Below are positions 2,244 through 35,580 of a DNA stretch of 35,884 nucleotides, piece after piece. Under the pieces are notes generated by a model, which did not search any database, was not told the DNA's origin, and saw nothing but the letters and a program-made list of their open reading frames with translations. Position 1 is the stretch's first letter. Each line of letters begins with the position of its first letter. Source of the stretch: Thermodesulfobacteriota bacterium (lineage in GTDB: Bacteria > Desulfobacterota_D > UBA1144 > Nemesobacterales > UBA2774); NCBI GenBank assembly GCA_035455615.1, contig DATIET010000269.1:1-35884 (forward strand), in the 5' to 3' direction. The translations under genes were made by a program, and so were the position numbers.

Positions 2244-2267
2244 TCGGAAGCTGCCGACAAACGCTGA

Positions 2268-5441: not shown

Positions 5442-5475
5442 AGCGCCCTCTCCAAAATATTTGATAAAATAGCTA

Positions 5476-6027: not shown

Positions 6028-6038
6028 ACATACTTCTC

Positions 6039-7709: not shown

Positions 7710-8721
7710 CCAGCGCCTCCAGGTATGCGACTATGGATTTCACTTCCGAATCCGAGAGCTTCATGTTGGGCATGAAAGCCCCCTGTTTATACCTCTGGGG
7801 GTTGGCGAGCCATTTGGCCAGGTTCTCGGGCGTATTCGTTAGCACCCCGGCGCCTATAGTAGCGCGGTCGGCGAGATGGGTCAGATCGGGCCCGACCCTC
7901 GCTGCCGCTGCCGTCCCGCGTATCGTATGGCAGTTCATGCAGGCCATCGTCTGGAAGAGCTTCGCCCCCTCCCCGGCTATTCCCTCGGTCGGAGTGCGGG
8001 GTATGGCGAGCTGCTCGTCCTGCCATTTATTGAATTCATCCTCCGGCTCCGCGACGACGCGTATACGCATGTTGGCGTGCTGTTCGCCGCAGAACTCGGC
8101 GCAGGCGCCGAGGTACACGCCGGGCTTTCCCGCCACAAGCCAGATGTAGTTGGGGTGTCCCGGGACGAGGTCTATTTTTCTCCCGAGCTCGGGCACCCAG
8201 AAGTCGTGTATCACGTCTATGGATTCGAGACGGACGAGCATTTTTTCCCCTGCCGGTATGTGTATCTCGTTTGAGGTCGATACACCTGAAGACGGATACC
8301 GAATCTCCCACCACCACTGATGGCCTATTATGACCAGGTCGGGCTCCCTGTCTCCGGCCGGGGGGTCCACTGTTTTCATAGTGCTGCACGTAAGAAGGAA
8401 AAGCACAGCGACCATCGCTATCGGTATCGCTGTCCAGACTATTTCGAGCTTTATGTTGCCGAAATCCTGATAGGGCTCGCTGTCGTCGCCCGGCTTCTTT
8501 CTGTACCGGATGATTATGTACGCGACTGCAATGACGATGATGCCGAGTATCACTACGGTTATGGCTATCGTATAGTAGGTTAAACCGGCCATCGCCTCCA
8601 TTTCGGGTGAGCTGGGATTGAAGAGGCCGCCAAGGTTTTCCATTGTGATTTGTCGGAGCGAAGGATTTAAATCGATCGTTAATTCGAACCCCAAATCATT
8701 ATAATGACTAGCGTGCTTCAT
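7699..8721 (-). CDS. ctaC: Cytochrome c oxidase subunit II with C-terminal cytochrome c domain (caa3-type)
   Basis: CuA site CAEFCGEQHANM. C-terminal CMNCH (CxxCH) domain. I prefer the ATG at 8721 (GAGAGG 8 nt upstream). The GTG at 8730 and ATG at 8643 are alternatives. Confidence 0.9.
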   Translation of the reverse strand: MKHASHYNDLGFELTIDLNPSLRQITMENLGGLFNPSSPEMEAMAGLTYYTIAITVVILGIIVIAVAYIIIRYRKKPGDDSEPYQDFGNIKLEIVWTAIPIAMVAVLFLLTCSTMKTVDPPAGDREPDLVIIGHQWWWEIRYPSSGVSTSNEIHIPAGEKMLVRLESIDVIHDFWVPELGRKIDLVPGHPNYIWLVAGKPGVYLGACAEFCGEQHANMRIRVVAEPEDEFNKWQDEQLAIPRTPTEGIAGEGAKLFQTMACMNCHTIRGTAAAARVGPDLTHLADRATIGAGVLTNTPENLAKWLANPQRYKQGAFMPNMKLSDSEVKSIVAYLEALDEQ

Positions 8722-8878
8722 TGTCAACACCTCTCACGAATTCGGGAAGTCATTCCGCCGTTATTTTGAGATAACGGGATGCAATTTATGGTATTCTCTT
8801 GCATAATAGCAGTAGCTCAGCATAATAGAAATTTGGTTTTTCTTGACTTCAACGGAAAGAGTTACCTTTGCCCTCTAA

Positions 8879-10738
8879 ATGAAAAAATATATCTTTTTAT
8901 CTTTTTCATACCTGCTCATATATGTATCAATAATTCATGCACCGGTCGTTACATTCTGTCAGGAAAAAGATAAGGGAGCGCCGAGCGCCGGGAGCGAAGA
9001 AGCCGCTGAGCCGGTCGTCCGCATTTCCAAGATAAAAATCAAGGGGGCGAAAGTCCTCACCAAGCAGGATATAGAGCAGAGCATAGGGACTGGTTTCCCT
9101 TCCATCAAGTTCTGGGTGAAGAAGCCCGAGTTCAACGAAGAGGTGCTGAAGGATGACATGATCAGGATAAAGAGGCTCTATGCGAACCAGGGTTATTACG
9201 ACGCCCAGGCCTCTTACGAGCTCAAGTTCAATAAAGACAACACTAGGGTCGAGATAACGATCAACATAACGGAGGGGGAGCCGATAATACTCACGGAGCT
9301 CAGCCTCGAGTACGAGGGGGACCTGAGCGACGACATAAAAAAGGAAATAGAAAAAGCCGTGCCGCTCAAAGTGGATAAGAATTTCTCTCCTAACGGATAC
9401 CAGCAGACCAAGGGGGCGATCACGGAGATACTCTCCGAGAAGGGCTACCCCAAGGCTGAAATAGAGGGCGAGGCCCTCGTAAACAGGAAGGAGAAATGGG
9501 CGAAGGCGACTTTCGTCGTCAAACCGGGCTCCATCTACAGGTTCGGAACGGTCGCCGTCGAGGGGAACGAGCAGGTGAAGAGTTATATCATTTCGAGGGA
9601 AGCGGTTTTCAAGCAGGGCGAAGAGTATTCATTGACCAAGATAAACGAAACGCAGGCCAATATATTCCAGCTGGGCTTGTTCAGGTCGGTCGTGATCGAC
9701 CCCGTATACGACGAGGCTTCGAGGATCGCCGACATGAAAATAGTCGTGAAAGAAAGAAAACAGGGGTCGGTGAAATTCGGTGTCGGTTTCGGCACCGAAG
9801 ACAAGCTGAGGGGGCAGGTGATCTGGACGAAGAGAAATTTCTTCGGCGGGGGACGGAGGCTCGAAGTCGCGGGTAAGGCCTCTTTCATTACCCAGAGGCT
9901 CGAGACGAGCGTCATACAGCCGTTTATATTGGGCAGGGATTCGAGTCTCACGGGCGCTCTCAATTTCCAGAGGGACGACGTACCGAGCTTCGAGGGCGAA
10001 AGCTTCCTCGCTACGGCCGAGCTCCAGAAGGACTTTGCTCAATACTACTCGTCCTTCGGCTCATTCAACGTACAGTTCTCGAGGGTCCAGAAGAGCGCGA
10101 GGAGGACCCCGGAGGAAGAGAGCAGGGAAAATTTCTTCCTCACATTCTTCAATACCGGGATCGAGCGGGACACCACGGACAACATACTTAACCCCACGCG
10201 CGGTTTCGTCGTCTCAACGGGGCTCGAGTCCTCGTTCCGGGCCCTCCTCTCTGACGTGAATTACCTGAAGGGCACGGTCGAGTTGAGAGGGTATAAAAAA
10301 TTATACAAGATGATCCTTGCGAAGAAGATAACGATGGGAGTGATTCAGCCTTTCGGCAACACAGGCACATTCGACATACCTATATTCAAGAGGTTCTTTG
10401 CGGGGGGCAGCACCAGCATGAGGGGCTTCCCTTTCCAGAAGCTCGGTCCGCTAAGCGACGGGGGGGACCCGCTCGGAGGCAACTCTCTCCTCGTGGGCAG
10501 CTTCGAGGTCAGGTATCCGATCTACGGGGAATTCGGCGGGGTCGTGTTCTTCGACTACGGTAACGTATTCGCCGACGAGTGGAGCTTCCCCCTGGGGGGC
10601 CTTAAGTACGCCCCCGGCGTGGGGCTCAGGTATGACACTATAATCGGGCCGGTAAGGTTCGACGTGGGTTATGCGCTCAACCCGGAGCCAGGCATAAGGA
10701 GGGTTCAGTTCTTTATAAGCATAGGGCAGGCGTTCTGA
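8879..10738 (+). CDS. Omp85-family outer-membrane protein, short (about 3 POTRA) TamA/BamA-like
   Basis: 619 aa. N-terminal signal peptide. About 250 aa of POTRA-like repeats (VRISKIKIKGAKVLTKQDIE, YRFGTVAVEGNEQVKSYIISRE). The barrel starts near GSVKFGVGFGTEDKLRG and ends in FFISIGQAF (aromatic terminus). Confidence 0.8.
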   Translation: MKKYIFLSFSYLLIYVSIIHAPVVTFCQEKDKGAPSAGSEEAAEPVVRISKIKIKGAKVLTKQDIEQSIGTGFPSIKFWVKKPEFNEEVLKDDMIRIKRLYANQGYYDAQASYELKFNKDNTRVEITINITEGEPIILTELSLEYEGDLSDDIKKEIEKAVPLKVDKNFSPNGYQQTKGAITEILSEKGYPKAEIEGEALVNRKEKWAKATFVVKPGSIYRFGTVAVEGNEQVKSYIISREAVFKQGEEYSLTKINETQANIFQLGLFRSVVIDPVYDEASRIADMKIVVKERKQGSVKFGVGFGTEDKLRGQVIWTKRNFFGGGRRLEVAGKASFITQRLETSVIQPFILGRDSSLTGALNFQRDDVPSFEGESFLATAELQKDFAQYYSSFGSFNVQFSRVQKSARRTPEEESRENFFLTFFNTGIERDTTDNILNPTRGFVVSTGLESSFRALLSDVNYLKGTVELRGYKKLYKMILAKKITMGVIQPFGNTGTFDIPIFKRFFAGGSTSMRGFPFQKLGPLSDGGDPLGGNSLLVGSFEVRYPIYGEFGGVVFFDYGNVFADEWSFPLGGLKYAPGVGLRYDTIIGPVRFDVGYALNPEPGIRRVQFFISIGQAF

Positions 10739-13105: not shown

Positions 13106-14608
13106 TTAACGGAGCACCGCTTCGAAATCCCTGACGAGCGCTTTCGATCCCTGGTCTTCAATGCCGCATCTCTTTAAAAGCGAGCCCGCGGTTATCCTCC
13201 CTCCTTCCGACCAGACGCCCTTGAGGAAATCCCCCGCGCCCCCGGTCCTCCACCATTCCTCGTCGAACGATTCCGTCATGAATCGACGGAGTCCGGGCCC
13301 GGCAAGCGCGGCTTTAAACCTGAAAGGAGAGGAGAGCGGAGAGAGGAATTCGGCGATGTAATTCCGTCCGTCGGCTTCGCATTGCGCCGCGCCGTTCATG
13401 ATTTCTGTGAATATTTCGGGCAAATCACGAGGGTCTCCGATTCCGAAGAGCTCACCTGCATAGAGTGCTCGCCCCGCGTCGAGCCTCGCCGTCATGAGCC
13501 GCCTTAGACGGACGAAATCGAGGAAATCCCCGTCAGCGTCTATTTTTAAATGCCTCCTCAACCATCTTGGCTCGCAGACGAGACCCCCGAATAGCCCGGA
13601 GAAGAGGTCTGTGAGCGCCCCGTCTCTCAGGAATACGAATTCGAAATCGTCGTCCGGGTCCGTATGACAGAAGCATAGCGAGTGACCGAGACACCTGAGA
13701 AACGATTCGTAATCGTGGATACCGCCTGCGGGATAAATTGAGATAGCGGTTTCAAAAGGCGGGTTCAGCGGAAGCGAAAAGCCGTCCGTCTCCTTCCCGG
13801 CTCTCTTCTCCGTGTCGGAGCTCAGCTCGCGGGCCGGTGATAGCGCCATGCCTTCGAGAAAGGTCCTCGATAGGACAGCGGGTTCGATATTCGGGAAATA
13901 CCCTCGCAGCTCAGCCGAGTTGAATAAGAACGTCATATCATATACGGAGGCGTCCTTTAGCGGGAGCTCCATCTTTTTTATGAAGTGCCACCCGAGCATA
14001 TCCCGGGCTATGTAATCGGTATCGGTGAGGAACCTCTTCGCCTCCTCTCCGAGGCGCATAATCCCGGTACCGAAAGCCGCATCCAGGAGCTCCCCATAAC
14101 TTCCGAAGCCGAGGGACTCCGCGCATTCCGTCATTATCCCGAGCTTCCTCCGGCAGAGGGTGTTGAGCTCTGATAAGATTTCCGGGTCCACGATCGCGAT
14201 CTCGTCCCTTTTGTGTTTTTTCGGCTCGGATAATAAGGCGGCTTTTGCGGAGCGGAGCGTCAGATTCTTTCCGCCCGCGCGGAACTCGGCGCCCGCTTCG
14301 AGCGCGAGCATCATGTCTGTGGGCCCGGAGGTCTTTCCTCCGAGAATGGCCCCGGCCAGGAATGAGGAAATGAGCCTCTGCCTCGCTCTCTCTTCCTCGT
14401 CTCCGCAGGCGGGTTCTCTGTACGATAAATAGCTCTCGGGCTCTAGGAGCTCTCTATGCGAGCCATAGATATACTTTATGCGGGTCTTAATCTTTCTGCC
14501 GGAGAAATTGAGGAAGAGCTCCCTGTTGAGCTCCGTCAACAAACCGACGCCTTCTGATCTGATGAACCGGACCGTGTCTCCGCTCAATCCCGACACTCCC
14601 TCTTTCAA
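13106..14608 (-). CDS. Hypothetical soluble protein (500 aa), family not recognised
   Basis: Long ORF with codon usage consistent with its neighbours. No TM segment or signal peptide. It only vaguely resembles M3-type peptidase folds, with GHSLCFCH where HExxH would be expected, so no function is assigned. Confidence 0.6.
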   Translation of the reverse strand: MKEGVSGLSGDTVRFIRSEGVGLLTELNRELFLNFSGRKIKTRIKYIYGSHRELLEPESYLSYREPACGDEEERARQRLISSFLAGAILGGKTSGPTDMMLALEAGAEFRAGGKNLTLRSAKAALLSEPKKHKRDEIAIVDPEILSELNTLCRRKLGIMTECAESLGFGSYGELLDAAFGTGIMRLGEEAKRFLTDTDYIARDMLGWHFIKKMELPLKDASVYDMTFLFNSAELRGYFPNIEPAVLSRTFLEGMALSPARELSSDTEKRAGKETDGFSLPLNPPFETAISIYPAGGIHDYESFLRCLGHSLCFCHTDPDDDFEFVFLRDGALTDLFSGLFGGLVCEPRWLRRHLKIDADGDFLDFVRLRRLMTARLDAGRALYAGELFGIGDPRDLPEIFTEIMNGAAQCEADGRNYIAEFLSPLSSPFRFKAALAGPGLRRFMTESFDEEWWRTGGAGDFLKGVWSEGGRITAGSLLKRCGIEDQGSKALVRDFEAVLR

Positions 14609-18913: not shown

Positions 18914-19345
18914 ATGTCCTACGAAAGGGATGATCGGGATTTACTGACGATGTTCAAAGACGGCATAAACAAGGGCCTCAGGGTGATTAATATAAGATCG
19001 AAAGAGGCATACGACACGCTTAAGATCAAAAATACAATCAGGCAGCTCGAGCGCAGGAGGAGGGACGCTGTCTACGATATGGGCGCCTCGGTCTACAGGA
19101 CCTTCACGCACACTGGGAAAATCGTCGAGGATACCGTGGCCGCCAGGTGTGCGGATATAGATAGAATAGAATCCGAGATCGAGGGGTGGCGGGAGGATCT
19201 GAATCTCGTCCATCTGAACGCCCGGAAGGCCCTCGGGAGCGTCAAGGCCCTCGCCAGGCCCAGGGTTGCCGCGTTCTGCGACTGCGGGGCCGAGATAGAG
19301 GAGGGGGCCAGGTTTTGCGGTCAATGCTACAAGGAACTCAATTGA
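18914..19345 (+). CDS. Zinc-ribbon domain protein with coiled-coil N-terminal region
   Basis: 143 aa. GAGGAG 8 nt upstream. C-terminal CDCGAEIEEGARFCGQC (CxC..CxxC) zinc ribbon. Confidence 0.7.
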   Translation: MSYERDDRDLLTMFKDGINKGLRVINIRSKEAYDTLKIKNTIRQLERRRRDAVYDMGASVYRTFTHTGKIVEDTVAARCADIDRIESEIEGWREDLNLVHLNARKALGSVKALARPRVAAFCDCGAEIEEGARFCGQCYKELN

Positions 19346-19492
19346 CACGCCGGGGGTGCGCGTCATGTCTCGATACATCGCGGATTGGACCTGGCCTCCG
19401 GGTACATGTGAGGCAGGGATATAACCCATCAGCCGCGGAGGTTTTCTTAGTTTGTCTTTACTGTCTAAGGCGCAAACATTATTGAAATTATA

Positions 19493-24433: not shown

Positions 24434-24976
24434 TTGAAGACTCCGCTCTACATTCTATTTTCCGTGACCGTGCTTCTCGCGGGCGAACGGGCTTTCGCCG
24501 TGGGGAAGGAAACGCTCGTCGATATAACGGGCGTCGCCGTCGTGGTGGACGAGGTGTCGCCTGCCGCGAGGGAGGACGGGCTCAGTGAGACCGGAATAAA
24601 GGCATTGGTCGAGGATAAGCTCACCAGGGCCAACATCATGGTGCTCGAAGACCGCGAGTGGTTCATGGTCTTCGGGGGCTCATACCTTCTTATCAAGATC
24701 ATAGCCAGCAAGGCCGTGAGTGGAGACAGGTACGCGGTCTACATCGACATGGAGCTCTATCAGACGGTCGTGCTGATGGGGAAGAGGCTCGGGCAGAATA
24801 TCAACACGGCTGCCGCCACGTGGTCCATAGGGAAGCTCTTTTCCTGCAATTCCACAGCGTTGGAGGACTGTGTAGAGGGTACTGTCGCGGAGCTCACAGG
24901 CCTGTTCATCAAGGATTACATAGAGGTAAACACGCTAAAGTGGAAGCAGGAGCAGGAGAGGCTCCAGAAGAAGTGA
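24434..24976 (+). CDS. Small exported protein of unknown function
   Basis: 180 aa. Apparent TTG start 64 nt after the repeat-protein stop. Signal peptide KTPLYILFSVTVLLAGERAFA-VG. Basic, coiled C-terminus (KWKQEQERLQKK). Confidence 0.55.
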   Translation: MKTPLYILFSVTVLLAGERAFAVGKETLVDITGVAVVVDEVSPAAREDGLSETGIKALVEDKLTRANIMVLEDREWFMVFGGSYLLIKIIASKAVSGDRYAVYIDMELYQTVVLMGKRLGQNINTAAATWSIGKLFSCNSTALEDCVEGTVAELTGLFIKDYIEVNTLKWKQEQERLQKK

Positions 24977-25026: not shown

Positions 25027-26355
25027 TTACCGTCCTTCTTCTTTTTCTTCTAAAAACTTGAAGAGCGCCTCGTCTACAGCCTTTTGTATATTCTTTCTTA
25101 TTTTTAATGATTTGATTAAACTCTCTATGTCTATATCAAACTCTTTTTCTATGCTTGTATCCATCTGCTTAACTTTCAGCTTTGCACGTTTTAGCTCGTC
25201 GTCGCCGATTATGATCGTGTACTTCACGCCCAATTTATCGGCACGTTTGAACTGACTCTTTAGGCTCTTGTTGCCATATTCCATCTCGGTTGAGATTCCC
25301 CTATTCCTAAACTCTGAAGCAAGCTGAAAGGAAATTTTCCTTGCCTCTTCCCCCATGTGCGCGATGAAGACCCTCACTTCCTTCCCAAACCCTTCGGGGA
25401 AGGCCATCTGGTGGAGGAGTATGAGCCTCTCCATTCCTACCGCGAATCCGACCGCCGGCGTCCGGGGCCCACCCAGCTCCTCGACGAGCCCGTCGTAACG
25501 GCCCCCGGCGGCGACCGCGTTCTGCGACCCGAGCTCTTCGGTAGTTATCTCGAATACGGTCCTCGTGTAATAGTCGAGTCCCCTTACTATCCCGGGGTTC
25601 AGGACGTAGGGGACGCCCACCGCGTCGAGGCTCTCCTTTACTTCGCCCAGGTGACGGCTGCAGTCGGGGCAGAGGCTGTCTATCATCCTCGGGGCGCGCG
25701 CCGCTGTCTCCCTGCACCCCTTTACCTTGCAGTCGAGTATGCGGAGCGGGTTCGTTTCGAGCCTCCTTTGACAATCTTCACACAGGCGCTCCTTTTCAGG
25801 GGTGAAGAATGCGATGAGCCTTTCCTTGTACTGAGGCCGGCAGTTCTCGTCTCCGAGAGAGCTAAGCTCGAGCTTCAAATATTTCGTTATCCCTATCCTC
25901 TCCAGGAGCCTCCATACCATTGTAATGATCTCTGCGTCGGAGGAGGGCTCTTCGGGCCCCAGGAGCTCGGCCCCTATCTGGTAAAACCCCCTGAAGCGTC
26001 CTTTTTGAGGCCTTTCGTGCCTGAACATCATGCCCGTGTAGTAGAGCTTCGTGACGGGGGATTTGGCCCACATCGAGTTCTCGATATACGCCCTCACCAC
26101 ACCGGCAGTGCCTTCGGGTCGGAGCGTGAGCGACGAGCCGTCCCTGTCGGTAAACGTGTACATCTCCTTCTCCACTATGTCGGTCGTCGAGCCGAGACTC
26201 CGGGCGAATATCTCGGTGAATTCGAGGACCGGCATCCGGAGCTCCGAGTACCCGTGGAGCTCGAAGACGGACTTCGCCTTCTCCTCTATATCGTGCCACC
26301 GCTTGATGTCCTCGGGAAGGATGTCGTGGAACCCTCTTATCGATCTTGCTTCCAT
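25027..26355 (-). CDS. hisS: Histidine--tRNA ligase
   Basis: Class II aaRS HisRS motifs (RGFHDILPED, LRPEGTAGVVRAY, GGGRYDGLV). I place the start at the ATG at 26355 (MEARSIRGF) with AGGAG upstream. The ORF extension to 26511 is Arg/Ser-rich and unlikely to be translated. Confidence 0.92.
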   Translation of the reverse strand: MEARSIRGFHDILPEDIKRWHDIEEKAKSVFELHGYSELRMPVLEFTEIFARSLGSTTDIVEKEMYTFTDRDGSSLTLRPEGTAGVVRAYIENSMWAKSPVTKLYYTGMMFRHERPQKGRFRGFYQIGAELLGPEEPSSDAEIITMVWRLLERIGITKYLKLELSSLGDENCRPQYKERLIAFFTPEKERLCEDCQRRLETNPLRILDCKVKGCRETAARAPRMIDSLCPDCSRHLGEVKESLDAVGVPYVLNPGIVRGLDYYTRTVFEITTEELGSQNAVAAGGRYDGLVEELGGPRTPAVGFAVGMERLILLHQMAFPEGFGKEVRVFIAHMGEEARKISFQLASEFRNRGISTEMEYGNKSLKSQFKRADKLGVKYTIIIGDDELKRAKLKVKQMDTSIEKEFDIDIESLIKSLKIRKNIQKAVDEALFKFLEEKEEGR

Positions 26356-26535
26356 TGCGCTCCTACTAGATTGACTGTATGTATCCCGCGCCGTCCGGGA
26401 CGGCCTAGTTTTACCTGAGATTGTCTCGGCCGCCGGTTTATTATATCCAACACCCGTGGCTATTTCTAATGAGCCCCGGAAACGGGAGGCGGGTCCGCCC
26501 GGATTCGTCAACGGGCGAATATCACCATATAATAA

Positions 26536-27714
26536 ATGCCGAAGCGACTGACATCACGCCGGATCTCTAATATGCGGAACGGAACCCCCGAGAGTGTATT
26601 CTACGTAGGAAGCCCGGAGCTCTTCTCGAAAGGCGCGAGCGCCATACACATCATGAAGATGTGCCAGGCCATGGGGAGGCTCGGCATAACTGCGACCCTC
26701 CTTATCCCGGCTTACCGTACGCCCGGGGAGATGCTTCGGTACTACTGCGTGGAATCGAATTTCAGGATCGTCCCGTTCCCTTACTTCGGCAACTCGTCCG
26801 TGAGGAATATAACGCACGGCGTCCTCGCCTCTATATACGCGGGGACGCACAGGAAGGAGTTCGACCTGGCAGTCACGAGGAACATCGTGTTCGCCTCGAT
26901 CGCGACTAACGTATTCGGCGTGCCGACCGTATACGACGCGCACCATCCGCTCGTGACCGGCGCGCACCTGCTCTTCAACTCTTTCAAGCGCTCGGAGCGG
27001 CTCGTCCGGTTCTCGACCAACTCGCGCGGATTAGGCGAAATATACCTCCGCGAAGGCCTCCCTCCTGAAAAGCTCGTAGTCGCACACAACGGGGTGGACC
27101 TCCAAGTATACGGGTCGCTCCCTGAGAAAGCCCGGGCCAGGGCCGACCTCGGCCTGTCCCCGGATAAGAAGATAGTCTGCTACTCGGGCAACATATACGA
27201 GGGCAGGGGGATAGAGCACTTGATAGAGATCGCCCCCGGCATGAGCGGAGTGCTCTTCCTCATAGTGGGCGGGCTCGAGTCGGACGTCCAGCGCTGCCGC
27301 AGTCTCACCCGTGAAAAGAGAGCGGAGAACATCAGGTTCACGAGCTACGTCCACAACAATACGGTCCCGCTATATCTCGCGGCTTCGGATGTCCTCGTCA
27401 TGCCCTACACCTCGCGCATGACGATAAGGGGCGGCACCCTTGCCCGCGACTTCACTTCCCCGATAAAACTCTTCGAGTACATGGCGTCCGGGCGTCCTAT
27501 TGTAGCTACATCCATCCCGTCCGTCTCGGAGATACTCGAGGACGGCGTGAACGCGCTCCTCGTCCCCCCCGACAGCCCCGAGGCGCTCGCGGCCGGCATA
27601 AAAAGGGCGCTCGACGACGCCGCGCTCGCGAAGGCCCTATCCGGGAGGGCCGCATCCGACGCCGTGGGTTATACATGGGAGGCGAGGGCCAAAAAATTGC
27701 TCGGAATAGATTAG
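26536..27714 (+). CDS. Glycosyltransferase, GT4 (GT-B fold) family
   Basis: 392 aa. C-terminal GT1/GT4 signature region (LASDVLVMPYTS ... SPIKLFEYMASGRPIVATSIPSVSEIL.DGVNALLV). The start codon is ambiguous: a TATAAT lies only 3-4 nt before 26536, so the ATG at 26572 is an alternative. Confidence 0.8.
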   Translation: MPKRLTSRRISNMRNGTPESVFYVGSPELFSKGASAIHIMKMCQAMGRLGITATLLIPAYRTPGEMLRYYCVESNFRIVPFPYFGNSSVRNITHGVLASIYAGTHRKEFDLAVTRNIVFASIATNVFGVPTVYDAHHPLVTGAHLLFNSFKRSERLVRFSTNSRGLGEIYLREGLPPEKLVVAHNGVDLQVYGSLPEKARARADLGLSPDKKIVCYSGNIYEGRGIEHLIEIAPGMSGVLFLIVGGLESDVQRCRSLTREKRAENIRFTSYVHNNTVPLYLAASDVLVMPYTSRMTIRGGTLARDFTSPIKLFEYMASGRPIVATSIPSVSEILEDGVNALLVPPDSPEALAAGIKRALDDAALAKALSGRAASDAVGYTWEARAKKLLGID

Positions 27715-27808
27715 CTATTCAGGTTATATAATTTTTAGGGTATTTTATCACTTCAATTTTAATCGATTCTCATCAGGATTGATTTGAGCAGCGTGACAAG
27801 GTAAAGAA

Positions 27809-29320
27809 GTGAGGGTGATGCACAGGTATCTCTTTATATTTTTGACCCTACTCGCCGCATTCCAGGCGTCGGCAGAGGAGGATGTCCGCGTGAACGAGAT
27901 GTTCGATTACGCATTCTCCGAGAACGCCGCCACGGGGCAGAAGCAGGAGGAAGGGAAGGACGGGGAATTCGTCACTGGCGAGGAGGGGAGGGAGCGCCTC
28001 GGCTTAAACGCCTTCCTCCGCGATTCCGCCATAATGTACGGGGGCCTCTGGGCGTCCAGGTTTTTCTACGTAAGGAACAAGAACAGCAGGATATTCGATA
28101 CGTCCTTTTCCAAATGGTGGCACAACATCACGCAGTGGCCGGAATGGGACGACGGGGATTCGTTCTTCACCAACTGGGTCACGCACCCCACGATAGGAGC
28201 GGTGGAGTATCTCTTCTACAGGCAGATGGGGCACGGCTACCTCGTTTCCGCCCTGGGCGTGGTGCTACAGAGCACGCTCTTCGAGTACACGATCGAGGGC
28301 ACGGTCGAAGTCCCTTCGCTCGTCGACCTCGTATCGACGCCGCTCGTCGGCGTCCCGATGGGGTTCGCGCTCGAGAAGTCCTCCGACTGGCTCGTATCCA
28401 CGGACTTCGTTCCGGCGAAGATACTCGGCCACATTCTTAACCCCATGAGGAACTTCATCTACGAGAGACAGGTCGGCATATACAACCCCTTCTCGAAGAC
28501 GTTCTTTTCGGTGACCGGGCCTATAGTGTTCACGCCTAATAAGGACATCGCTATCGACCTCGCGTATCCATACTTCCTCGAGGAACCGCTCCCGATGGGC
28601 AGGTTCAGGGCGGACCTCGAGATCCTCAACCTCAAGAAGAAAAACAGCGGACAGTTCATATTCTATTCGCTCCGGGCCGACGTACCTTCCAAGAGCGGGC
28701 TCTGGGGCGTCTATGTGAAAATAGCGCAGTCCGGGGTGAACTCGGTCGTTATAAACGGCGAAGAAGTGAGGGACGGGTTCGAGTTCGCGAACGTGCTCGC
28801 GGGCGGGAAGGCCATCCTCTGGAAGTCCCACAATTCGGCAATCTCCGGAGGCGTCGAGCTGATATTGCCGACCTCTTACAAGGACAACATAGACAGGCTT
28901 TCGACGGTCACGATGTTCAAAAGGAACTTCCCTATAAATTTGCAGAAGGCCTGGACCGTGACCCCGTACGTGACCGCGGCCGCGTGGAAAGGGATATTCA
29001 ACGTGCAGGCGATGGCTTCGACGGACGTTGTGTTTAACGCAGGGGAGCTCGAAGGGAACTCTGCCGAGTGGAGGCTCAATTACGGGGCCTCGGCCGGGGC
29101 GAACTTCCCGGTGATCGCGTCCCCCGTGCTCTACGCGGAGTTCGGCGCGTACACGACCCTCACGGCCGACACGTTTCAGAAGAACGGCATGTTCATGACG
29201 TCGGGCGTGAGGTTCGGGAGGAAGTTCAGCCCGGGCTTCGCGATGCAGCTCCCGGTTTACGGAGCGGACAGAGACATTGACAGGTTCAGCTATATGTTCG
29301 ACTTCCAGATAAGGTTCTAG
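27809..29320 (+). CDS. Exported protein, DUF3943-like N-terminal domain plus putative C-terminal beta-barrel (paralog 1)
   Basis: 503 aa. Signal peptide LFIFLTLLAAFQASA. Conserved block WDDGDSFFTNWVTHPTIGAVEYLFYRQMGHGY...QSTLFEYTIEG...PSLVDLVSTPLVGVPMG. Alternating-hydrophobicity C-terminal half ends in FDFQIRF. The start is GTG 27809 or ATG 27818. Confidence 0.75.
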   Translation: MRVMHRYLFIFLTLLAAFQASAEEDVRVNEMFDYAFSENAATGQKQEEGKDGEFVTGEEGRERLGLNAFLRDSAIMYGGLWASRFFYVRNKNSRIFDTSFSKWWHNITQWPEWDDGDSFFTNWVTHPTIGAVEYLFYRQMGHGYLVSALGVVLQSTLFEYTIEGTVEVPSLVDLVSTPLVGVPMGFALEKSSDWLVSTDFVPAKILGHILNPMRNFIYERQVGIYNPFSKTFFSVTGPIVFTPNKDIAIDLAYPYFLEEPLPMGRFRADLEILNLKKKNSGQFIFYSLRADVPSKSGLWGVYVKIAQSGVNSVVINGEEVRDGFEFANVLAGGKAILWKSHNSAISGGVELILPTSYKDNIDRLSTVTMFKRNFPINLQKAWTVTPYVTAAAWKGIFNVQAMASTDVVFNAGELEGNSAEWRLNYGASAGANFPVIASPVLYAEFGAYTTLTADTFQKNGMFMTSGVRFGRKFSPGFAMQLPVYGADRDIDRFSYMFDFQIRF

Positions 29321-29892
29321 TCCTTCATTCCTTCTTTAATTCAGTCATGCTGAACTATGTTTCTGAGCACGATTGCAAACAAGCGCGCAATCGGTCGATC
29401 ATCGCAGATTGCAAAGAAGATCCTTATCCTCTTCTTGAGGAATATCAATCCAAAATATTCAGGGTCTCGTCTTTATCCCGTTCGTCCTTCGGCACACAAT
29501 GTGTGCTCATTTATGATTCCATCCAACTCCTTCGATAAAGGGGGATTCTCCACACTCAATTGACACACGTTTGCCAGCGGATGCTATCCGCCGCAGAACC
29601 TGCGCTCGGATACGATCCCTCTGTCGCGCCTTAGCTCTAGCCAAAGAATGGAGCCGAGATAATCCTGGGCTGCGTGTCTGTCCTGAGCGAAGTCGCTCGT
29701 TTCGGCAAAGGCCTGAGCCGTAGCCGGGAAGGATCGAAGGATTGAAAGGGTTGTACTATCATATATCCGCGGCGGCTCCCCGCCCGGACGAATTTGGAGC
29801 ATTCGTAAATTCTTCTTTTATTTCCGCTAAATTATTGTTAAAATGTGCTATGCGCCCGGACGTGATCTCTCGGCCTTGGCGCTTAAGGGAGG

Positions 29893-31407
29893 ATGTGGTT
29901 GAAGGCGACAATCGTATGTACCGCTTTACTCATGATTTTTCAGCTCGTCCCTGCCTCGGCCGAGGATAGTCCCTACCTTTACGCGGCCGGGGAATCCGTC
30001 ACTCCCCACGAACCTGACGACGCCGTATTGCCCGTTGAGCCTCCAGCCGGCGAGGAGCCCGCTCCCAAACCCAACCTGAGGCCGCCCGGATTCAAGACCT
30101 ACATGGAAGACACGACCATCTGGTACGGCGCGCAGTGGGCGGCGAGGCTCTGGTGGGTGAGGGACAAGAACCTCAAGATCTTCGACGGAGGGTTCCACAC
30201 GTTCTGGAGCAACCTGACGAGCGAGCCGCTTTGGGACGACGAGGACGATTTCGTCGTCAACTGGGTGCTCCACCCGTTCTTCGGCATGCTCTCCTACCAG
30301 TTCTACAGGGCGAGGGGACACAGCGTCTGGGCATCGGCCCTGGGCTCGGTCATACAGAGCACGCTCTTCGAATACGGAATCGAGGGGTGGGCGGTCAGGC
30401 CCTCTGGCCTCGATCTCATCGTTACCCCTGCCCTCGGCGTACCGCTCGGATGGACGATGGAGCAGTTCTCCGAATGGCTGATACAGCAGGACTCCAAGGT
30501 CGCCAGGGTCGCTGCGTACGTCACGAACCCGACGAGGGTCTTCGTCAAGGACACACAGTTCGGCCTCATCAACCCCGTAACGGGCGCGTTCCAGTACCGG
30601 GGGCAGTTCACGATATCAACGACGAAGGGCAAGGCGCTCGAGCTCGGTTACCCGAAATTCTTCGAGCCCCCGCTCCCGCTCGGCAGGGTGGGGATAGACC
30701 TCGAACTTATCACGCTCGAGAAGGCGCTCGGCGGGGAGTTCATACTATATCCGATGAGGCTCGAGTTCCCGTCCGAGAGCAATTACTGGGGGGTCTACAC
30801 GGACATACCGTATGGCGGAACGAACAATGTGACCGACGGGGATACGGACATAAGGGACGGATACGAGTTCGGGAACCTGATGGTCGGGGTGAAATCGCTC
30901 CTGGCGAAATCGAAGGACTTCGCCCTGGGCGCTGGGCTCGAGGTTTATTTCCCGACCTCGTTCACCGACGACCAGGACAGGCTAGCGCAGATTATAAAAT
31001 ACAGAAGGGACTTCCAGATGTACCTCTACAAGGCGACGACCGTTTCGCCGTACGTCACGGCGGGGGCGTGGAGAGGGCCTTTCAGCGTGCAGGGCGCGCT
31101 CGGCTCGGACTTCATTTTCAACGCCGAGGAATTCGCTGGGCAGGACTTCGAGTTCAGGATCAACTACCACGCGGCCGCGGGGCTGAACGTCCCCATGACG
31201 GGGTCGCCGATCCTGTACTGCGAATTCGATGGGTACTCGATCACGACGTACGACGGCGCGGGAGGGGGCACGGACCTGTTCCTCACTCCGGGCATAAGGT
31301 TCGGGAAAAAGTACAGCCCTGGCTTCTCGGCCCAGCTCCCGGTCTACGGGCCTACGAAGGACATCGCCGACGCCGATTTCGTGTTCGACTTCCAGCTCCG
31401 GGTCTGA
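29893..31407 (+). CDS. Exported protein, DUF3943-like N-terminal domain plus putative C-terminal beta-barrel (paralog 2)
   Basis: 504 aa. Alignable end to end with 27809..29320 (WDDEDDFVVNWVLHPFFGMLSYQFYRARGH, QSTLFEYGIEG, SPYVTAGAWRGPFSVQ, SPGFSAQLPVYG). Ends in FDFQLRV. AAGGGAGG abuts the ATG, so the TTG at 29899 is an alternative start. Confidence 0.75.
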   Translation: MWLKATIVCTALLMIFQLVPASAEDSPYLYAAGESVTPHEPDDAVLPVEPPAGEEPAPKPNLRPPGFKTYMEDTTIWYGAQWAARLWWVRDKNLKIFDGGFHTFWSNLTSEPLWDDEDDFVVNWVLHPFFGMLSYQFYRARGHSVWASALGSVIQSTLFEYGIEGWAVRPSGLDLIVTPALGVPLGWTMEQFSEWLIQQDSKVARVAAYVTNPTRVFVKDTQFGLINPVTGAFQYRGQFTISTTKGKALELGYPKFFEPPLPLGRVGIDLELITLEKALGGEFILYPMRLEFPSESNYWGVYTDIPYGGTNNVTDGDTDIRDGYEFGNLMVGVKSLLAKSKDFALGAGLEVYFPTSFTDDQDRLAQIIKYRRDFQMYLYKATTVSPYVTAGAWRGPFSVQGALGSDFIFNAEEFAGQDFEFRINYHAAAGLNVPMTGSPILYCEFDGYSITTYDGAGGGTDLFLTPGIRFGKKYSPGFSAQLPVYGPTKDIADADFVFDFQLRV

Positions 31408-32182
31408 GGGGGAGGGGATTTCTCTTTTTGTTCTGTCATTGTTGTAGATGTTAAATAATTCGTGGCTGGAATTTTTCTGGATAACATGTAATGAAGGGGG
31501 TTTGTATTTCCCGACATGCACAAACGATTCCGAGCTAGTGAGGAATTGGTCGCGCCTGGTTGAGAGCACGAACGTATTATCCATCCTCCCATCGTTATTG
31601 AAGCCAAATTAGAGGAATCGGTCGCCCTTGCTTATGAGCAACAACGTAAATTCATCCGGCACGACAAATCTTCATCGCTCCTTATGCGGGCGGAATTGAT
31701 AGATTTTCGCCGTAATAAGATATTTTAGCCAGGATTCTGTGCTGTCTTTTCATAAACCATACTACGTGTGTGATTTTTGCTTCTTTCCAGGCTACGGCAG
31801 GCTCCGCCCTGACGAGTCATCAAGGAAAAGAAGAGCAATATATCGCTTTCTTTTGTATTCCGATGGGACAACTTTTGTCCACGAATTACTTGACATCTAA
31901 AATTGCGAGGAACGGTTCTGAACGTGTGCAAGAACCGATGGCCGAAATGACACAATGTGGGGAAGTCCTGTGTAAAAAAGTAACGCATTACCCGATCGTT
32001 TCCTCGAACCCATGCTCCGGGCATCGGTGCGCTCGCATCACCTCTATCGTGCCTGCCATCCCTTAAAGCCTCTGCAGTAAACTCGTCCCGGTTTCTGGTC
32101 GGAGCTAATGTATTAAAACTATGGAATTATTATCAGTACCGCAAGCAGACTTTTGTATTTATAAAAAAGTACTTGAGGCCTG

Positions 32183-32211
32183 TTTACATTTATGCTTAAC
32201 TATAATATAAT
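32183..32211 (+). promoter_or_regulatory. Near-consensus sigma70 promoter heading the low-GC two-component module
   Basis: TTTACA (32183..32188), a 17-nt spacer, then TATAAT (32206..32211). It lies in AT-rich DNA, so a chance match is possible. Confidence 0.45.
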
Positions 32212-32256
32212 AATTTGGGGGTTTCTGTTTTCTTTTATTCTGAGGTGGTCGGAATA

Positions 32257-32484
32257 ATGGAAAAAACTTTAAATTTCGGGGTGGTCCGTACCAAAATTGC
32301 CTTGATTAAACTGACCTGCATGTCAGTTATCTGTGTGTTATATCTTATTAAAAAGAAATTTGGTTCTCACCACTCCATAATACCTAAAACACATGACGAG
32401 GATCCGGATCTATTCGCCAGTGGGGTATTCTTCTCAATTCTATTCTCCAAGCGGTTGATTCCGAATTCTCTGATTACTATTTGA
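32257..32484 (+). CDS. Possible small hydrophobic protein (75 aa)
   Basis: ATG at 32257 with GAGGTGG 8 nt upstream. One hydrophobic stretch (IALIKLTCMSVICVLYLI). No recognisable family. Confidence 0.25.
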   Translation: MEKTLNFGVVRTKIALIKLTCMSVICVLYLIKKKFGSHHSIIPKTHDEDPDLFASGVFFSILFSKRLIPNSLITI

Positions 32485-32519
32485 TACCGTATTTAGAAAG
32501 TTGTAAGGGAGGATATCAA

Positions 32520-32633
32520 TTGCCAGCAATTATGAAAATTTTAGTGTTAGATTGCTTGCAAACCATGCATATACAAACTCCCAATTATCTAACTGGTGGA
32601 ACGAGTTATGTAAGTATAGGGATATGGGTATGA
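32520..32633 (+). CDS. Possible 37-codon small ORF behind a strong Shine-Dalgarno
   Basis: AAGGGAGG (32505..32512) lies 7 nt before the TTG at 32520. An in-frame ATG is at 32532. It encodes MPAIMKILVLDCLQTMHIQTPNYLTGGTSYVSIGIWV, with a stop at 32631..32633. Confidence 0.2.
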   Translation: MPAIMKILVLDCLQTMHIQTPNYLTGGTSYVSIGIWV

Positions 32634-32708
32634 CTAAATTAAATTTAGTAGAAATAAAAAATTTATGAGAGATTCTTGTACACGTAATATCAAGTCGACG
32701 GGTAGAGC

Positions 32709-34958
32709 ATGATAATGAAGGGCATGATTGAGAATACCAAAATTATGAAACCAACTAGTAATGAACCTCTATTGCTCCATCAGAACATCGATCGAAGTAC
32801 CTACAATCTTGTATTTGTATTAAATATTAATTACGAACTTATATTTACCAGTCCCAACCTTGTTAGTGTTTTGGGTTATGAAGCCGAAGGTTTTGTGGGT
32901 ACAAACTTTTTTCAACATGTTCATACTGATGATTGTGAGAGGGTTAAGGCCGAATTTGATAATTCATTTTGGATTATTTCCAAAATAATCGGACAAGATA
33001 ATTATGAACTTAATGTCGGCGACATTTTTAAGTTAACAACAAAAGACCGGATTAAGACTTTTCTACAAAACTATTCTAAAACACTCAGATCTCTGTCTGC
33101 AATTAAGCCAATTATGTTCAGAGTCAAACGAAAGAACGGAAAATGGTGCTGGCTTGAAAGCAGCGGTATCCCTTTTCTTGCGGAACATGGCGAGATCATG
33201 ATAACGATTTCAGCCTGTGACGTCACAGAGCGCATTAAGCTGCAGGAGGCGCTTAAATTTAACTTGAAGAAGCTTAACAAAACAAGAAGGCATGAGAGTA
33301 TCATACGGGCTATTACTCAAGATGTTCACAAAACTATCAATTTACAGGAAGTGTTTGATAACGCTGTTTATGCCATTCACAAAAACGTACTTGGGGCGAA
33401 AAATGTTGCAATATACATAATTGAGAATGGCAATGCGGTTATTAAGTCTCACAATGGATTCCCCGATAGGTTTCTCGATAGAGTAAGAATAATTCCTTAT
33501 CCCAAAGACTACACATGGAAAACGATTATTGATGAGAAGTCCATATACTGTGCCGATGTAGTCAGGGATCCCATAGTCGGCAGAGTGGGAAGGGAGATTG
33601 GAGTTAAAAGTTATTTATCAATGCCTATTCGTTCCAGGAACAGTATACTGGGTGTGATAAATATTAGTTCAACCAAGAAAAATATCTTCGACAAGAATGA
33701 GTTGATGTTGCTTGAACATATAACGCAGCAAATAGAAACCGCTATCAATAATGCTCAAAAAGCTGAAAAGTTAAGAAAGAGTGAAAAACGTTTCAGGACC
33801 CTCTTCGAAAATGTGCCAACCGGGGTTTATAGAATTACTCCTGACGGCCAGATACTGGATGCGAATCCGTCATTCATAGCTATGCTGGGTTTTTCATCGA
33901 TAGAGGAATTGGCCGTAAATGTGATTCAACATCAGCATTTCAGGTGCGATGGTACCTGGGAGGAAGTCAGGAAAACCATTGAGCGGCATGGAGAGATAAA
34001 AGGCATGGAATCCGTATGGAATAAACGGGACGGGACAAAGATATTTGTACTTGAGAATATTACGGTGCTGAGAACAGACGACGGAAATATTTTATTTTAT
34101 GAAGGGACAGTCGAAGAAATTACCGAACGTAAAGTAGCGGAAAATAAGTTAAAAGAGGTTAATTTAAATCTGGAAAAGGAGATCAGCAGAAGAACTGCTC
34201 TACTGATAAAAGCCAACAAATCCCTGCGAAAAGAAATATCTGAGAAGAGGCTGAAGGAAGCCGAACTCGAGAATTCATACAAGCAGCTTCGCGCACTCAC
34301 AACACACCTGGAGTCGGTACGCGAAGAAGAAAGAACCAAGATATCGCGGGAGGTTCATGACGAGTTAGGACAGTCATTGACGGGTCTGAAAATAGATCTT
34401 GACCTGCTAAGTAAGCACCTCTGCGAAAGTGATGACAATTCCCGGACCGGGAAACTCACTGAAATGATAAATAAGATGTCGGCTCTCGTTGATTATAATA
34501 TTCAGTCGGTTCGCAGAATAGCGATGGAGCTGAGACCCGGTATCCTTGATGATCTGGGAATGGTTGCAGCTATCGAATGGCAGGTACAGGATTTTGAAAA
34601 ACTTACCGGTATTAAGTGCATCTTCAGCTCTGAAGCGGAGGATATCCCCTTGGACCGAGAGGTTTCGACTGCCCTATTCCGTATTTTTCAGGAAGTCATA
34701 ACTAACATCGCGCGCCATTCGAAAGCTACAGTTGTAAATGTAAATATAAAAGACTGTCGCAGCGAATACATACTGGAAGTTGAAGATAACGGAGTAGGGA
34801 TCTCGAACGACGCGATGGTCGCTCCGCAATCCTTGGGATTACTCGGAATGAAAGAACGTGCCTTGATTTTCGGGGGTAATGTAAAGATAACAAGTGAATA
34901 TAACAAAGGGACCAAAGTCTCGGTAAATGTTCCTAAAGCGAGGTGCTCTAATGATTAG
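32709..34958 (+). CDS. Soluble sensor histidine kinase, PAS-GAF-PAS-HisKA_3-HATPase_c
   Basis: 749 aa with no TM segments. PAS-like segments near LIFTSPNLVSVLGYEAEGFVG and YRITPDGQILDANPSFIAMLGF. A GAF-like block lies between them. Coiled coil, then H-box REVHDELGQSLTGLK (HisKA_3 type). ATPase N and G boxes (EVITNIARHS, VEDNGVGIS, GLLGMKERA). Confidence 0.88.
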   Translation: MIMKGMIENTKIMKPTSNEPLLLHQNIDRSTYNLVFVLNINYELIFTSPNLVSVLGYEAEGFVGTNFFQHVHTDDCERVKAEFDNSFWIISKIIGQDNYELNVGDIFKLTTKDRIKTFLQNYSKTLRSLSAIKPIMFRVKRKNGKWCWLESSGIPFLAEHGEIMITISACDVTERIKLQEALKFNLKKLNKTRRHESIIRAITQDVHKTINLQEVFDNAVYAIHKNVLGAKNVAIYIIENGNAVIKSHNGFPDRFLDRVRIIPYPKDYTWKTIIDEKSIYCADVVRDPIVGRVGREIGVKSYLSMPIRSRNSILGVINISSTKKNIFDKNELMLLEHITQQIETAINNAQKAEKLRKSEKRFRTLFENVPTGVYRITPDGQILDANPSFIAMLGFSSIEELAVNVIQHQHFRCDGTWEEVRKTIERHGEIKGMESVWNKRDGTKIFVLENITVLRTDDGNILFYEGTVEEITERKVAENKLKEVNLNLEKEISRRTALLIKANKSLRKEISEKRLKEAELENSYKQLRALTTHLESVREEERTKISREVHDELGQSLTGLKIDLDLLSKHLCESDDNSRTGKLTEMINKMSALVDYNIQSVRRIAMELRPGILDDLGMVAAIEWQVQDFEKLTGIKCIFSSEAEDIPLDREVSTALFRIFQEVITNIARHSKATVVNVNIKDCRSEYILEVEDNGVGISNDAMVAPQSLGLLGMKERALIFGGNVKITSEYNKGTKVSVNVPKARCSND

Positions 34959-35580
34959 AATACTAATTGCAGACGACCATCCGGTAGTTCGGCTGGGTTT
35001 AAAATTAATCCTCGAAAAAGAAGCCGACTTTTCTGTGAATAATCAGGCGAGAACAGCTCGTGAAGCTCTTGAGCACGTTAGTAATATGAATTATGATTTG
35101 GTATTGCTTGATATATCGTTGCCTGACAGAAACGGACTCGAAGTATTGCATCAATTGAAAATCGAGCATCCTGAAATTAAAGTGCTGGTCATAAGTATGC
35201 ATTCTGAGGACTTATACGCAATGAGGGTTCTAAAGGAAGGCGCTTCGGGGTATTTGACCAAGGATAGCGCACCGGAGGATCTGGTAAAGGCCGTCAGGAA
35301 AGTCCTCTCGGGTGGTAAATATGTAAGCTCTTCCCTTGCTGAAAAACTGGCTCACGAACTAACAAGTGGTTCTGACCGTCCTCCAGATCGTTTTCTGTCT
35401 AACCGTGAATTTCAGGTGATGTGTATGATCGCCTCCGGAAAGAAAATTAAGGATATATCCAATGAACTTTATTTAAGTGAAAAAACTGTAAGTACTTACC
35501 GTGCCCGGATATTGCTAAAAATGAACTTGAAGAATAATGCCGAAATAATCAGATATACAATAAATAATAAGCTGATTTGA
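34951..35580 (+). CDS. NarL/LuxR-family response regulator (REC plus HTH)
   Basis: MIRILIADDHPVVR start with GAGGTG 6 nt upstream, overlapping the kinase stop by 8 nt (ATGATTAG). Phospho-acceptor context DLVLLDISLPD. LuxR HTH LSNREFQVMCMIASGKKIKDISNELYLSEKTVSTYRARIL. Confidence 0.9.
   Translation: MIRILIADDHPVVRLGLKLILEKEADFSVNNQARTAREALEHVSNMNYDLVLLDISLPDRNGLEVLHQLKIEHPEIKVLVISMHSEDLYAMRVLKEGASGYLTKDSAPEDLVKAVRKVLSGGKYVSSSLAEKLAHELTSGSDRPPDRFLSNREFQVMCMIASGKKIKDISNELYLSEKTVSTYRARILLKMNLKNNAEIIRYTINNKLI

Follow-up and report, generated by a model that had tools for sequence, protein, structure and literature searches.

Locus organization

The window, that is the whole stretch of 35,884 nucleotides (nt) analysed here (contig DATIET010000269.1 of the Thermodesulfobacteriota bacterium assembly GCA_035455615.1), carries on its forward strand a gene for a family 4 glycosyltransferase (GT4) followed by two tandem paralogous genes, in the following called A and B, whose products combine an N-terminal DUF3943 (YfiM-Griddle) head with a C-terminal outer-membrane barrel (Table 1). 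An earlier note on this DNA had read A and B as two exported proteins of about 503 amino acids (aa) that align over their full length, and BLASTP finds 213 identical residues out of 502 (42%, E 5e-145) between them. Each protein starts with a hydrophobic signal peptide whose last residues, read by eye, are A-S-A, with cleavage in A placed between ASA and EE. The roughly 40 residues behind the signal peptides (~23-65) do not align between A and B, being acidic and Gly-rich in the former and Pro-rich in the latter, so the mature N-termini are unrelated, as had been noticed. This region is also variable among 40 homologues, and at residues 18-59 of the full-length AlphaFold model the predicted local distance difference test score (pLDDT) is below 50. 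Judging from sequences and models, A and B are most likely Sec-exported outer-membrane proteins with a Griddle head and a barrel as anchor.

Table 1. Coordinates and parts of the GT4-Griddle module in the window
Feature	Position	Strand	Description
GT4 (GT-B fold) glycosyltransferase gene	26536..27714	+	392 aa, first gene of the module; Pfam matches
Gene A	27809..29320	+	503 aa open reading frame (ORF), Griddle-barrel fusion
Gene A, protein parts			signal peptide residues 1-22; acidic/Gly-rich variable linker; Griddle ~66-222; linker; 12-stranded barrel ~246-503
Gene A, DUF3943 Pfam match	28151-28447	+	
Gene A, barrel	28547-29314	+	
Variable part of the A-B spacer	29321..29776		no strand; only short unconserved ORFs, no Rfam match
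Conserved promoter-like block 5' of gene B	29777..29898	+	extended -10-like TGtTAAAAT 29836-29844, 5' leader, ribosome-binding site GGGAGG 29885-29890
Gene B	29893..31407	+	504 aa ORF; probable true start TTG 29899
Gene B, protein parts			signal peptide residues 1-23; Pro-rich variable linker; Griddle; disordered linker 223-240; 12-stranded barrel 247-504
Gene B, Griddle elements			helices 67-87, 101-109, 120-140, 145-166, 172-197; hairpin 202-219
Gene B, DUF3943 Pfam match	30238-30531	+	
Gene B, barrel	30631-31404	+	

The DUF3943/YfiM-Griddle head domain

The head that had been called DUF3943-like is matched by the Pfam model DUF3943 (PF13084) in A at residues 115-213 (E 4e-20, 72.1 bits) and in B at residues 116-213 (E 3e-24, 85.4 bits), the gathering cut-off of this model being 27 bits. 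Searching NCBIfam with A and B gave no match. Membership of both proteins in the DUF3943/Griddle family is firm. Burroughs, Nicastro & Aravind (eLife 2025, PMC12419801; bioRxiv 10.1101/2025.01.14.632903) gave DUF3943 the name "YfiM-Griddle" and placed it in a new superfamily, Lipocone; for this deeper relationship, proposed from sequence comparison, we rely on these authors. In their description the Lipocone fold is a four-helix cone with an ancestral active site made of a His in helix H2, a Glu in H3, a polar residue where H3 ends and an Asp in H4. Hallmarks of the Griddle family are a special linker between H1 and H2 and, at the C-terminus, a hairpin of two helices whose turn has the form hhsP (PMC12419801). 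A DUF3943 domain has also been mentioned for Helicobacter pylori HP0803 (PMC3688963).

Both A and B contain the two motifs, WDD.D.F..NWV.HP..G...Y.FYR..GH and QSTLFEY.IEG....PS..DL..TP..GVP.G, in which the earlier note had seen a block of polar residues resembling an active or binding site. In 40 full-length homologues the following positions are invariant (numbering of B): D116, D118, N123, H127, P128, Y138, R139, Q155, S156, E160, Y161, E164, P170, S171, D174, T178, P179, G182, G186 and E190. When 74 diverse DUF3943 domains are aligned (mean column identity 17%), D116, H127, E160, E164 and T178 are still invariant, and N123, G131, R139, S171, D174, P179, G182, G186 and P213 are conserved in at least 90%. 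The conserved residues of A and B match the published pattern: His (H2), Glu (H3), a polar residue closing H3, Asp (H4), a polar residue further down and Gly (H4).

For the head by itself, a confident AlphaFold2 model (pLDDT 87.8, predicted template modelling score (pTM) 0.82) was compared at the level of secondary structure as assigned by DSSP. It consists of four long helices (67-87, 120-140, 145-166 and 172-197), a helical element in the H1-H2 linker (101-109) and a C-terminal hairpin of two helices (202-211/214-219) with N212-P213 at the turn. The helices are moderately hydrophobic, with mean Kyte-Doolittle values of 0.6-0.8 and 1.09 for the best 19-residue window. This is compatible with Sec-dependent passage over the inner membrane followed by association with a membrane surface.

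With this set of residues the Griddle head would act on the head group of a membrane lipid as a metal-dependent enzyme, its target there being a phosphate ester or a pyrophosphate. Either the bond would be hydrolysed, as by YfiM and TelC, or the head group exchanged, as by the phosphatidylserine synthases PSS1/2. The helical cone would accommodate the lipid tail, and the active site at the mouth of the cone would be made up of His127, Glu160, Glu164 and Asp174, together with Asp116 and Thr178.

The C-terminal barrel

The full-length model (pLDDT 78.9, pTM 0.66) has 12 beta strands between residues 265 and 503 (DSSP). The even-numbered turns are short; the odd-numbered loops are long and partly variable, and the loop 353-381 is long, conserved and includes two short helices. 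In the VIA-align comparison the barrel superposes best on FapF (5o65; Z 23.4, root-mean-square deviation (rmsd) 2.6 A over 232 residues; Foldseek E 4.5e-9) and on the COG4313 channel Pput2725 (4rl8; Z 22.1, rmsd 2.8 A over 234 residues), the superpositions spanning model residues 247/255-504 at a sequence identity of 7-9%. KdgM and NanC follow (Z ~18.7), then autotransporter beta-domains (Z 16-17.6) and LpxR (3fid, Z 15.0). The outer-membrane barrel postulated before is thus supported by the model and by these matches. A Pfam scan at E <= 1 finds in A and B no family but DUF3943, hence no barrel family and no Autotransporter (PF03797), and therefore the likeness to FapF and COG4313 proteins is a statement about the fold only. 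The alternating C-termini, ...FDFQIRF in A and ...FDFQLRV in B, have the aromatic pattern of an outer-membrane beta-signal, as had been proposed, with Val as the last residue of B where more than 90% of the homologues have Phe.

The barrel also occurs without the head. The genome to which the window belongs encodes a stand-alone paralogue of 291 aa with a signal peptide and 36% identity to the barrel of B (contig C98; L063 7020-7895, minus strand); it adjoins a threonine-synthase-like gene and has no DUF3943 gene near it. Elsewhere, P0105 and P0111 also represent the barrel alone. In P0089 (979 aa) a signal peptide and repeats of the Chlamydia polymorphic membrane protein (PMP) type precede a C-terminal barrel that is 45% identical to residues 247-504 of B over 259 residues. 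A search for longer barrel-bearing proteins (883-2520 aa) scored none, which says little, as the known P0089 was missed as well. Because it is found alone and in P0089, we regard the barrel as an anchor module typical of this lineage, as far as sequence comparison tells. It would fix A and B in the outer membrane after Sec export.

The layout of P0089, a passenger followed by a barrel, leaves surface display of N-terminal domains as a possibility by analogy. Applied to A and B this means that the barrel would thread the Griddle head to the outside, as in autotransporters, with the outer leaflet or foreign membranes as the target of the head. Besides P0089, the autotransporter beta-domains among the structural matches agree with such a layout, and so does the linker 223-240, which is disordered and long enough for a pore. 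However, FapF and the COG4313 channel are clearly superior matches (Z 22-23). In the model, residues 223-246 form coil or have low confidence, and before strand 1 there is only a four-residue helix (247-250) and no helix spanning the pore; thus the helical linker of type Va autotransporters is missing, as is a PF03797 match. The existence of the barrel as a separate protein (contig C98, P0105, P0111) also speaks against threading, and a conserved chromosomal gene in an operon with a GT4 points to housekeeping rather than conflict. Taken together, we consider surface display quite improbable for A and B.

A second alternative dispenses with catalysis altogether: A and B could be channels of the FapF/COG4313 type for hydrophobic or polymeric cargo, in which the head binds lipid or acts as a gate, comparable to MlaA. 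The best structural matches of the barrel are transport channels, and the Atlas feature search leads, with a score of 0.93, to Phenol_MetA_deg-like clusters, which we take as a lead only. Yet His, Glu, Glu, Asp and Thr residues that stay invariant among the 74 divergent domains are a signature of catalysis rather than of binding, and in the enzyme YfiM, from the sister family, the equivalent residues serve in catalysis (bioRxiv 10.64898/2026.09.16.752124). A purely non-catalytic role therefore seems very unlikely to us. FapF itself shares with A and B, like the COG4313 proteins, the superposable 12-stranded fold and a C-terminal motif resembling a beta-signal, while A and B are not recognised by the sequence models of these families. 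The N-terminus of FapF is a coiled-coil/plug region for the secretion of amyloid subunits, whereas that of A and B is a predicted enzyme domain.

An enzymatic head on a barrel anchor, the arrangement we prefer, also differs from the known barrel enzymes of the outer membrane. LpxR is a lipid enzyme of this membrane, as A and B are predicted to be, but its barrel holds the active site and its substrate is lipid A, whereas the conserved polar cluster of A and B lies in the helical head and their lineage seems to be devoid of lipid A synthesis. PagP and PagL are likewise outer-membrane lipid enzymes with the active site embedded in the barrel and lipid A as substrate.

Distribution and history of the paralogues

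A word-seeded search retrieved 81 relatives, all of which except P0077 and P0079 carry PF13084. Where they have names at all, these are "DUF3943 domain-containing protein", "hypothetical protein" or another label for a domain of unknown function, and their organisms are labelled as Thermodesulfobacteriota, Candidatus Dadabacteria or metagenome-assembled genomes (MAGs) of "Deltaproteobacteria". The exhaustive profile search yields 2,042 representative clusters at E <= 0.001 and just 31 at E <= 1e-30; DUF3943 is thus widespread, while the full-length architecture of A and B is limited to few clusters. In other architectures the domain is located at the C-terminal end of proteins of 330-560 aa. 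Within the class, 44 of the 81 sampled genomes and 21 of the 24 genera possess DUF3943.

Among 54 loci the number of copies is one in 31, two in 17 and three in five, and in one locus (L028) five pieces exceed 100 bits, of which just two reach 400 aa. The genome of the window harbours three DUF3943 copies in total, namely A, B and a barrel-less copy of 271 aa on contig C125 (L002 1063-1878, plus strand; L058 6124-6939). The latter has all catalytic residues, divergently adjoins a gene for an OmpA-family/DUF4398 lipoprotein and has no glycosyltransferase nearby. Similar barrel-less copies of about 265-290 aa are present in several relatives.

A maximum-likelihood tree was calculated for 77 proteins by a quick search, with ORFs below 400 aa dropped and SH-aLRT values as support. 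Genes in first position form an "A" clade (30 rows, SH-aLRT 99) and genes in last position a "B" clade (22 rows, SH-aLRT 100). Single-copy lineages fall outside both, and the genomes with three copies show a further duplication of A. Such separate, well-supported clades of orthologues, though from a quick tree, rule out a recent origin of the pair; by this phylogeny the duplication into A and B is old. Every catalytic residue is kept in both clades, and 104 positions are conserved to at least 90% in both. In addition, 14 positions are clade-specific, several of them on or beside helix 2. From their residues both proteins appear catalytically intact and probably differ in substrate preference.

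The start of gene B and the A-B spacer

TTG 29899 aligns with the start codon of the relatives and lies 8 nt 3' of GGAGG, and for these two reasons we consider it most likely to be the real start of gene B, which corrects the ORF start at 29893. The resulting protein of 502 aa is identical in length to the database record P0004.

The spacer between A and B, described before as 572 nt long and regulatory-looking, has this length, but for the most part it is not conserved. In an alignment of six spacers, from the window and five close relatives, only the last ~110 nt are conserved and contain invariant columns; the rest varies from ~200 to 680 nt and cannot be aligned even with relatives that have ~86% identity in the genes. 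An Rfam scan of 26000-33000 at E <= 1 had no match, therefore no known RNA is present in the spacer, and none of its small ORFs is conserved in relatives. What remains of the regulatory character is the promoter-like block directly 5' of gene B. This block is probably a promoter, to judge by its sequence, so that gene B would have one of its own; our consensus scan for promoters and terminators, whose counts were near the expectation from shuffled sequence, did not call it. The variable spacer parts of two relatives (L006 and L008) contain short G/C-rich palindromes with arms of the GGGAGG...CCTCCC type; the window lacks these palindromes, which may represent small insertions.

The GT4 neighbour and the conservation of the operon

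The product of the gene in front of A, taken for a GT4 glycosyltransferase in the earlier note, matches Glyco_trans_1_4 (1.3e-25), Glycos_transf_1 (3.9e-23) and Glyco_transf_4 (2.3e-9) and has no Pfam domain other than those of glycosyltransferases. The pair Glyco_transf_4 and Glycos_transf_1 is the two-domain signature of the GT-B fold. All NCBIfam matches are far under the cut-offs, and no subfamily is assignable. The closest solved relatives are weak: 6kih (sucrose-phosphate-synthase-like, 1e-10), 4xso (Alr3699, 1e-7) and PimA (2gej, 7e-6).

To compare neighbourhoods, ORFs were called in each of the 54 loci mentioned above, which came from a scan of one genome per species, and matched to the proteins of the window. 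Of these, 49 have at least 1,300 nt 5' of the first Griddle gene and are testable, the others being L010, L013, L015, L026 and L049 (with a truncated GT4 at the edge of the last). In 45 of the 49 a GT4 ortholog lies directly upstream on the same strand, in 42 with a gap of at most 150 nt. In the most distant relatives, whose Griddle proteins are 27-30% identical, the two genes abut or overlap. In the window 94 nt without a terminator-like site separate the GT4 stop from gene A. The genes downstream vary by clade (thioredoxin/fumarase, GYD/HAD, S-adenosylmethionine decarboxylase/H+-pyrophosphatase, cupredoxin, and a kinase/regulator pair in the window). A divergently transcribed gene for histidyl-tRNA synthetase (HisRS) is also conserved beside the operon. 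Beyond HisRS, locus L057 carries at 726-3947 (minus strand) a Cas9-like gene of 1074 aa with HNH_4, RuvC_III and Cas9 alpha-lobe domains.

The conserved GT4 neighbourhood that had been suspected therefore exists in most loci, but the pairing is not obligate. Strict co-occurrence of GT4 and Griddle is ruled out by GT4 orthologs in genera without DUF3943, and conservation within one lineage could in part be inherited synteny. Two loci of such a genus (g9; L064 and L065) have a GT4 ortholog with 45-48% identity, followed in both by an AsnB-type glutamine amidotransferase, with a second GT4 as a further neighbour in L064 and a sugar-nucleotidyltransferase in L065; from their gene content these are exopolysaccharide-like clusters for glycan synthesis. 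In a genome of g19 the locus is otherwise similar and the Griddle gene is simply absent. Because the GT4 persists without DUF3943 in this way, the Griddle protein would at most be accessory to the GT4, in a downstream step.

Proposed function

The reading we favour, and which we consider reasonably probable, is that A and B are exported Griddle-barrel enzymes for lipid head groups that act on a glycolipid or lipid-linked glycan connected with the GT4. Gene A would be co-transcribed with the gene of the cytoplasmic GT4 and gene B transcribed from its own promoter. Given this co-transcription, the substrate would most likely be a glycolipid or lipid-linked glycan that the GT4 helps to build and that is remodelled or released by A and B when it reaches the outer membrane. 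A similar role, and with it the envelope-modifying function that had been guessed for this locus, is proposed for the whole family in the sequence analysis of Burroughs et al., who consider transesterification of head groups or cleavage of phosphoesters, or else linkage or release of outer-membrane polysaccharides (PMC12419801). The statement that this family has no function assigned was accordingly out of date, since a lipid-head-group chemistry was predicted in 2025 and the activity of a sister family has been measured.

This sister family, belonging to the same YfiM clade (PMC12419801), is DUF2279. For its member YfiM of Escherichia coli, Li et al. (bioRxiv 10.64898/2026.09.16.752124) report a pyrophosphatase activity on lipid-linked oligosaccharides that depends on Ca2+ and is lost with each of the exchanges K28A, H31A, E72A and D91A. 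Going by their places in the helices, H31, E72 and D87 of YfiM would correspond to H127, E160 and D174, an assignment for which the alignment at hand is a non-significant hhalign match. D91 appears as Thr178 in A and B, and the Griddle proteins have D116 and E164 as additional invariant residues. YfiM is also different in being a protein of 107 aa without a barrel, encoded next to pssA, whereas A and B are barrel fusions encoded beside a GT4. No DUF2279 gene was found in the genome of the window (88.7% complete).

Several results weigh against our interpretation. With regard to the chemistry, the second catalytic Asp of YfiM and VanZ seems to be Thr178 here, so the reaction may differ. The hhalign comparison of the DUF3943 profile with the single YfiM sequence of E. 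coli is not significant (probability 0.6%, E 0.089), although its short alignment pairs the Glu motif of H3 and the Asp motif of H4. VIA-align of the head against 48,161 solved chains gave nothing above the background of helical bundles, the best match (Z 5.7) being a designed protein; human PSS2 (9n0x) and PSS1 (9b4f) have Z 4.0 and, with 18-19%, the highest identities in this list. Foldseek with the head found no match at E <= 0.001, the DUF3943 profile only a chance match (E 0.37) among PDB sequences, and a full-text literature search for "DUF3943" neither an experimental paper nor an enzyme assay. With regard to the GT4, it is absent upstream in four of the 49 testable loci (L036, L037, L043 and L057). 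All 54 loci come from a single lineage of uncultivated Dadabacteria-like bacteria (a few are labelled "Spirochaetia") and are not independent, and the equally conserved HisRS gene shows that inherited synteny alone keeps neighbours in this lineage. Moreover, 77 of the 81 genomes and all 24 genera of the class have GT4 orthologs (E <= 1e-40), including the three genera without DUF3943 (26 of 30 genomes in g9, 5 of 5 in g19 and 2 of 2 in g20).

The points on the GT4 raise the question whether the same enzymes might instead remodel head groups of ordinary glycerophospholipids in the outer membrane, the neighbouring GT4 being there by inherited synteny. In line with this, the GT4 ortholog is kept where DUF3943 is missing, the synteny of HisRS is equally conserved, and the third, barrel-less Griddle gene on contig C125 stands apart from any glycosyltransferase. 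A precedent is ClsO, described as a surface-exposed cardiolipin synthase in the outer membrane of Acinetobacter (PNAS 2026, PMC12846801), which shows that transesterification of lipid head groups takes place at the outer rather than the inner membrane; ClsO is, however, a lipoprotein of unrelated fold (a cardiolipin-synthase homolog) and not a barrel fusion. On the other hand, gaps of 0-150 nt between GT4 and Griddle genes and their overlap in the most diverged relatives indicate co-transcription or translational coupling, and GT-B partners of Griddle genes in other lineages are listed independently (PMC12419801). We therefore regard phospholipid remodelling as unlikely and keep a GT4-linked substrate as our preferred assumption.

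The outer membrane of the lineage

LpxC, LpxB and LptD were each found in none of 17 genomes of the family, 14 of which are at least 90% complete, while the positive controls were detected. In the class, again with the positive controls detected, LpxC is present in one of 81 genomes, as a fragment of 44 residues at a contig end in a 78%-complete MAG. A BamA-type Omp85/POTRA protein is encoded in the window itself (8879-10738). Since LpxC, LpxB and LptD were not found and BamA is present, the class looks, by gene content, like a diderm lineage without lipopolysaccharide (LPS) and lipid A. Literature searches combining Dadabacteria with LPS and outer-membrane terms gave nothing on point; the supplementary tables of papers on envelope evolution lay outside these searches. 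A complementary phyletic pattern of Griddle and LpxC is ruled out, as LpxC is missing class-wide with or without Griddle.

It is tempting to think of GT4 and Griddle-barrel proteins as a minimal pathway that, in such a lineage, makes or installs the outer-leaflet glycolipid directly at the outer membrane, in which the barrel would be the route of the lipid between the leaflets, the Griddle head would transfer the head group, and both together would stand in for late LPS assembly. We consider this idea speculative and hardly probable.

Other features of the window

From 31600 to the end at 35884 the G+C content falls from ~56% to 36-44%. This tail contains a PAS-GAF-PAS HisKA_3 histidine kinase (32709-34958) and a LuxR-type response regulator (34927-35580). 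An assembly chimera is ruled out, because the relative L004 has homologues of both behind its gene B; the tail may be a horizontally acquired island. At the other end of the window a respiratory cluster (957-8730) encodes an NDH-2-type oxidoreductase, a cytochrome b/c fusion, a Rieske protein, CtaG, COX3, COX1 and a COX2 fused to cytochrome c, which indicates an aerobic lifestyle. Three ORFs have no Pfam match at E <= 1e-5: 13106-14608 (minus strand, 500 aa), 18941-19429 (minus strand, 162 aa) and 24434-24976 (plus strand, 180 aa), the last being syntenic with HisRS in many relatives.

Significance for the Griddle family

The architecture, the tandem arrangement and the partnership with GT-B enzymes were already described from sequence in 2025, and the locus is a new, lineage-specific member of that family. 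According to Burroughs et al., Griddle domains show near-obligate fusion or operonic linkage to outer-membrane protein (OMP) barrels, occur in up to three tandem copies and have GT-B glycosyltransferases among their operon partners (PMC12419801). A and B agree with this in the Pfam model, the four-helix core, the linker, the hairpin, the His/Glu/Glu/Asp pattern, the fused OMP barrel, the two to three tandem copies in relatives and the GT-B enzyme in the operon. Nothing essential differs; particular to the present group are a Dadabacteria-specific clade, a barrel of the FapF/COG4313 type and a GT4 as the only conserved partner. The LolA, POTRA, Plug, TolB-N, patatin and PAP2 partners named by the same authors do not occur in the flanks examined here. 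New are the conservation of the GT4-Griddle operon, the old duplication into A and B, and the near-absence of LpxC in the class.

The clade offers an uncommonly clean test case, a two-component module of a GT4 and an enzyme-barrel protein that has no other conserved partners and in which both old paralogues are catalytically intact. The identity of the substrate would tell what part this whole Lipocone branch plays in outer membranes, and might also reveal the surface lipid of an uncultivated, globally distributed group of bacteria that apparently lives without lipid A.

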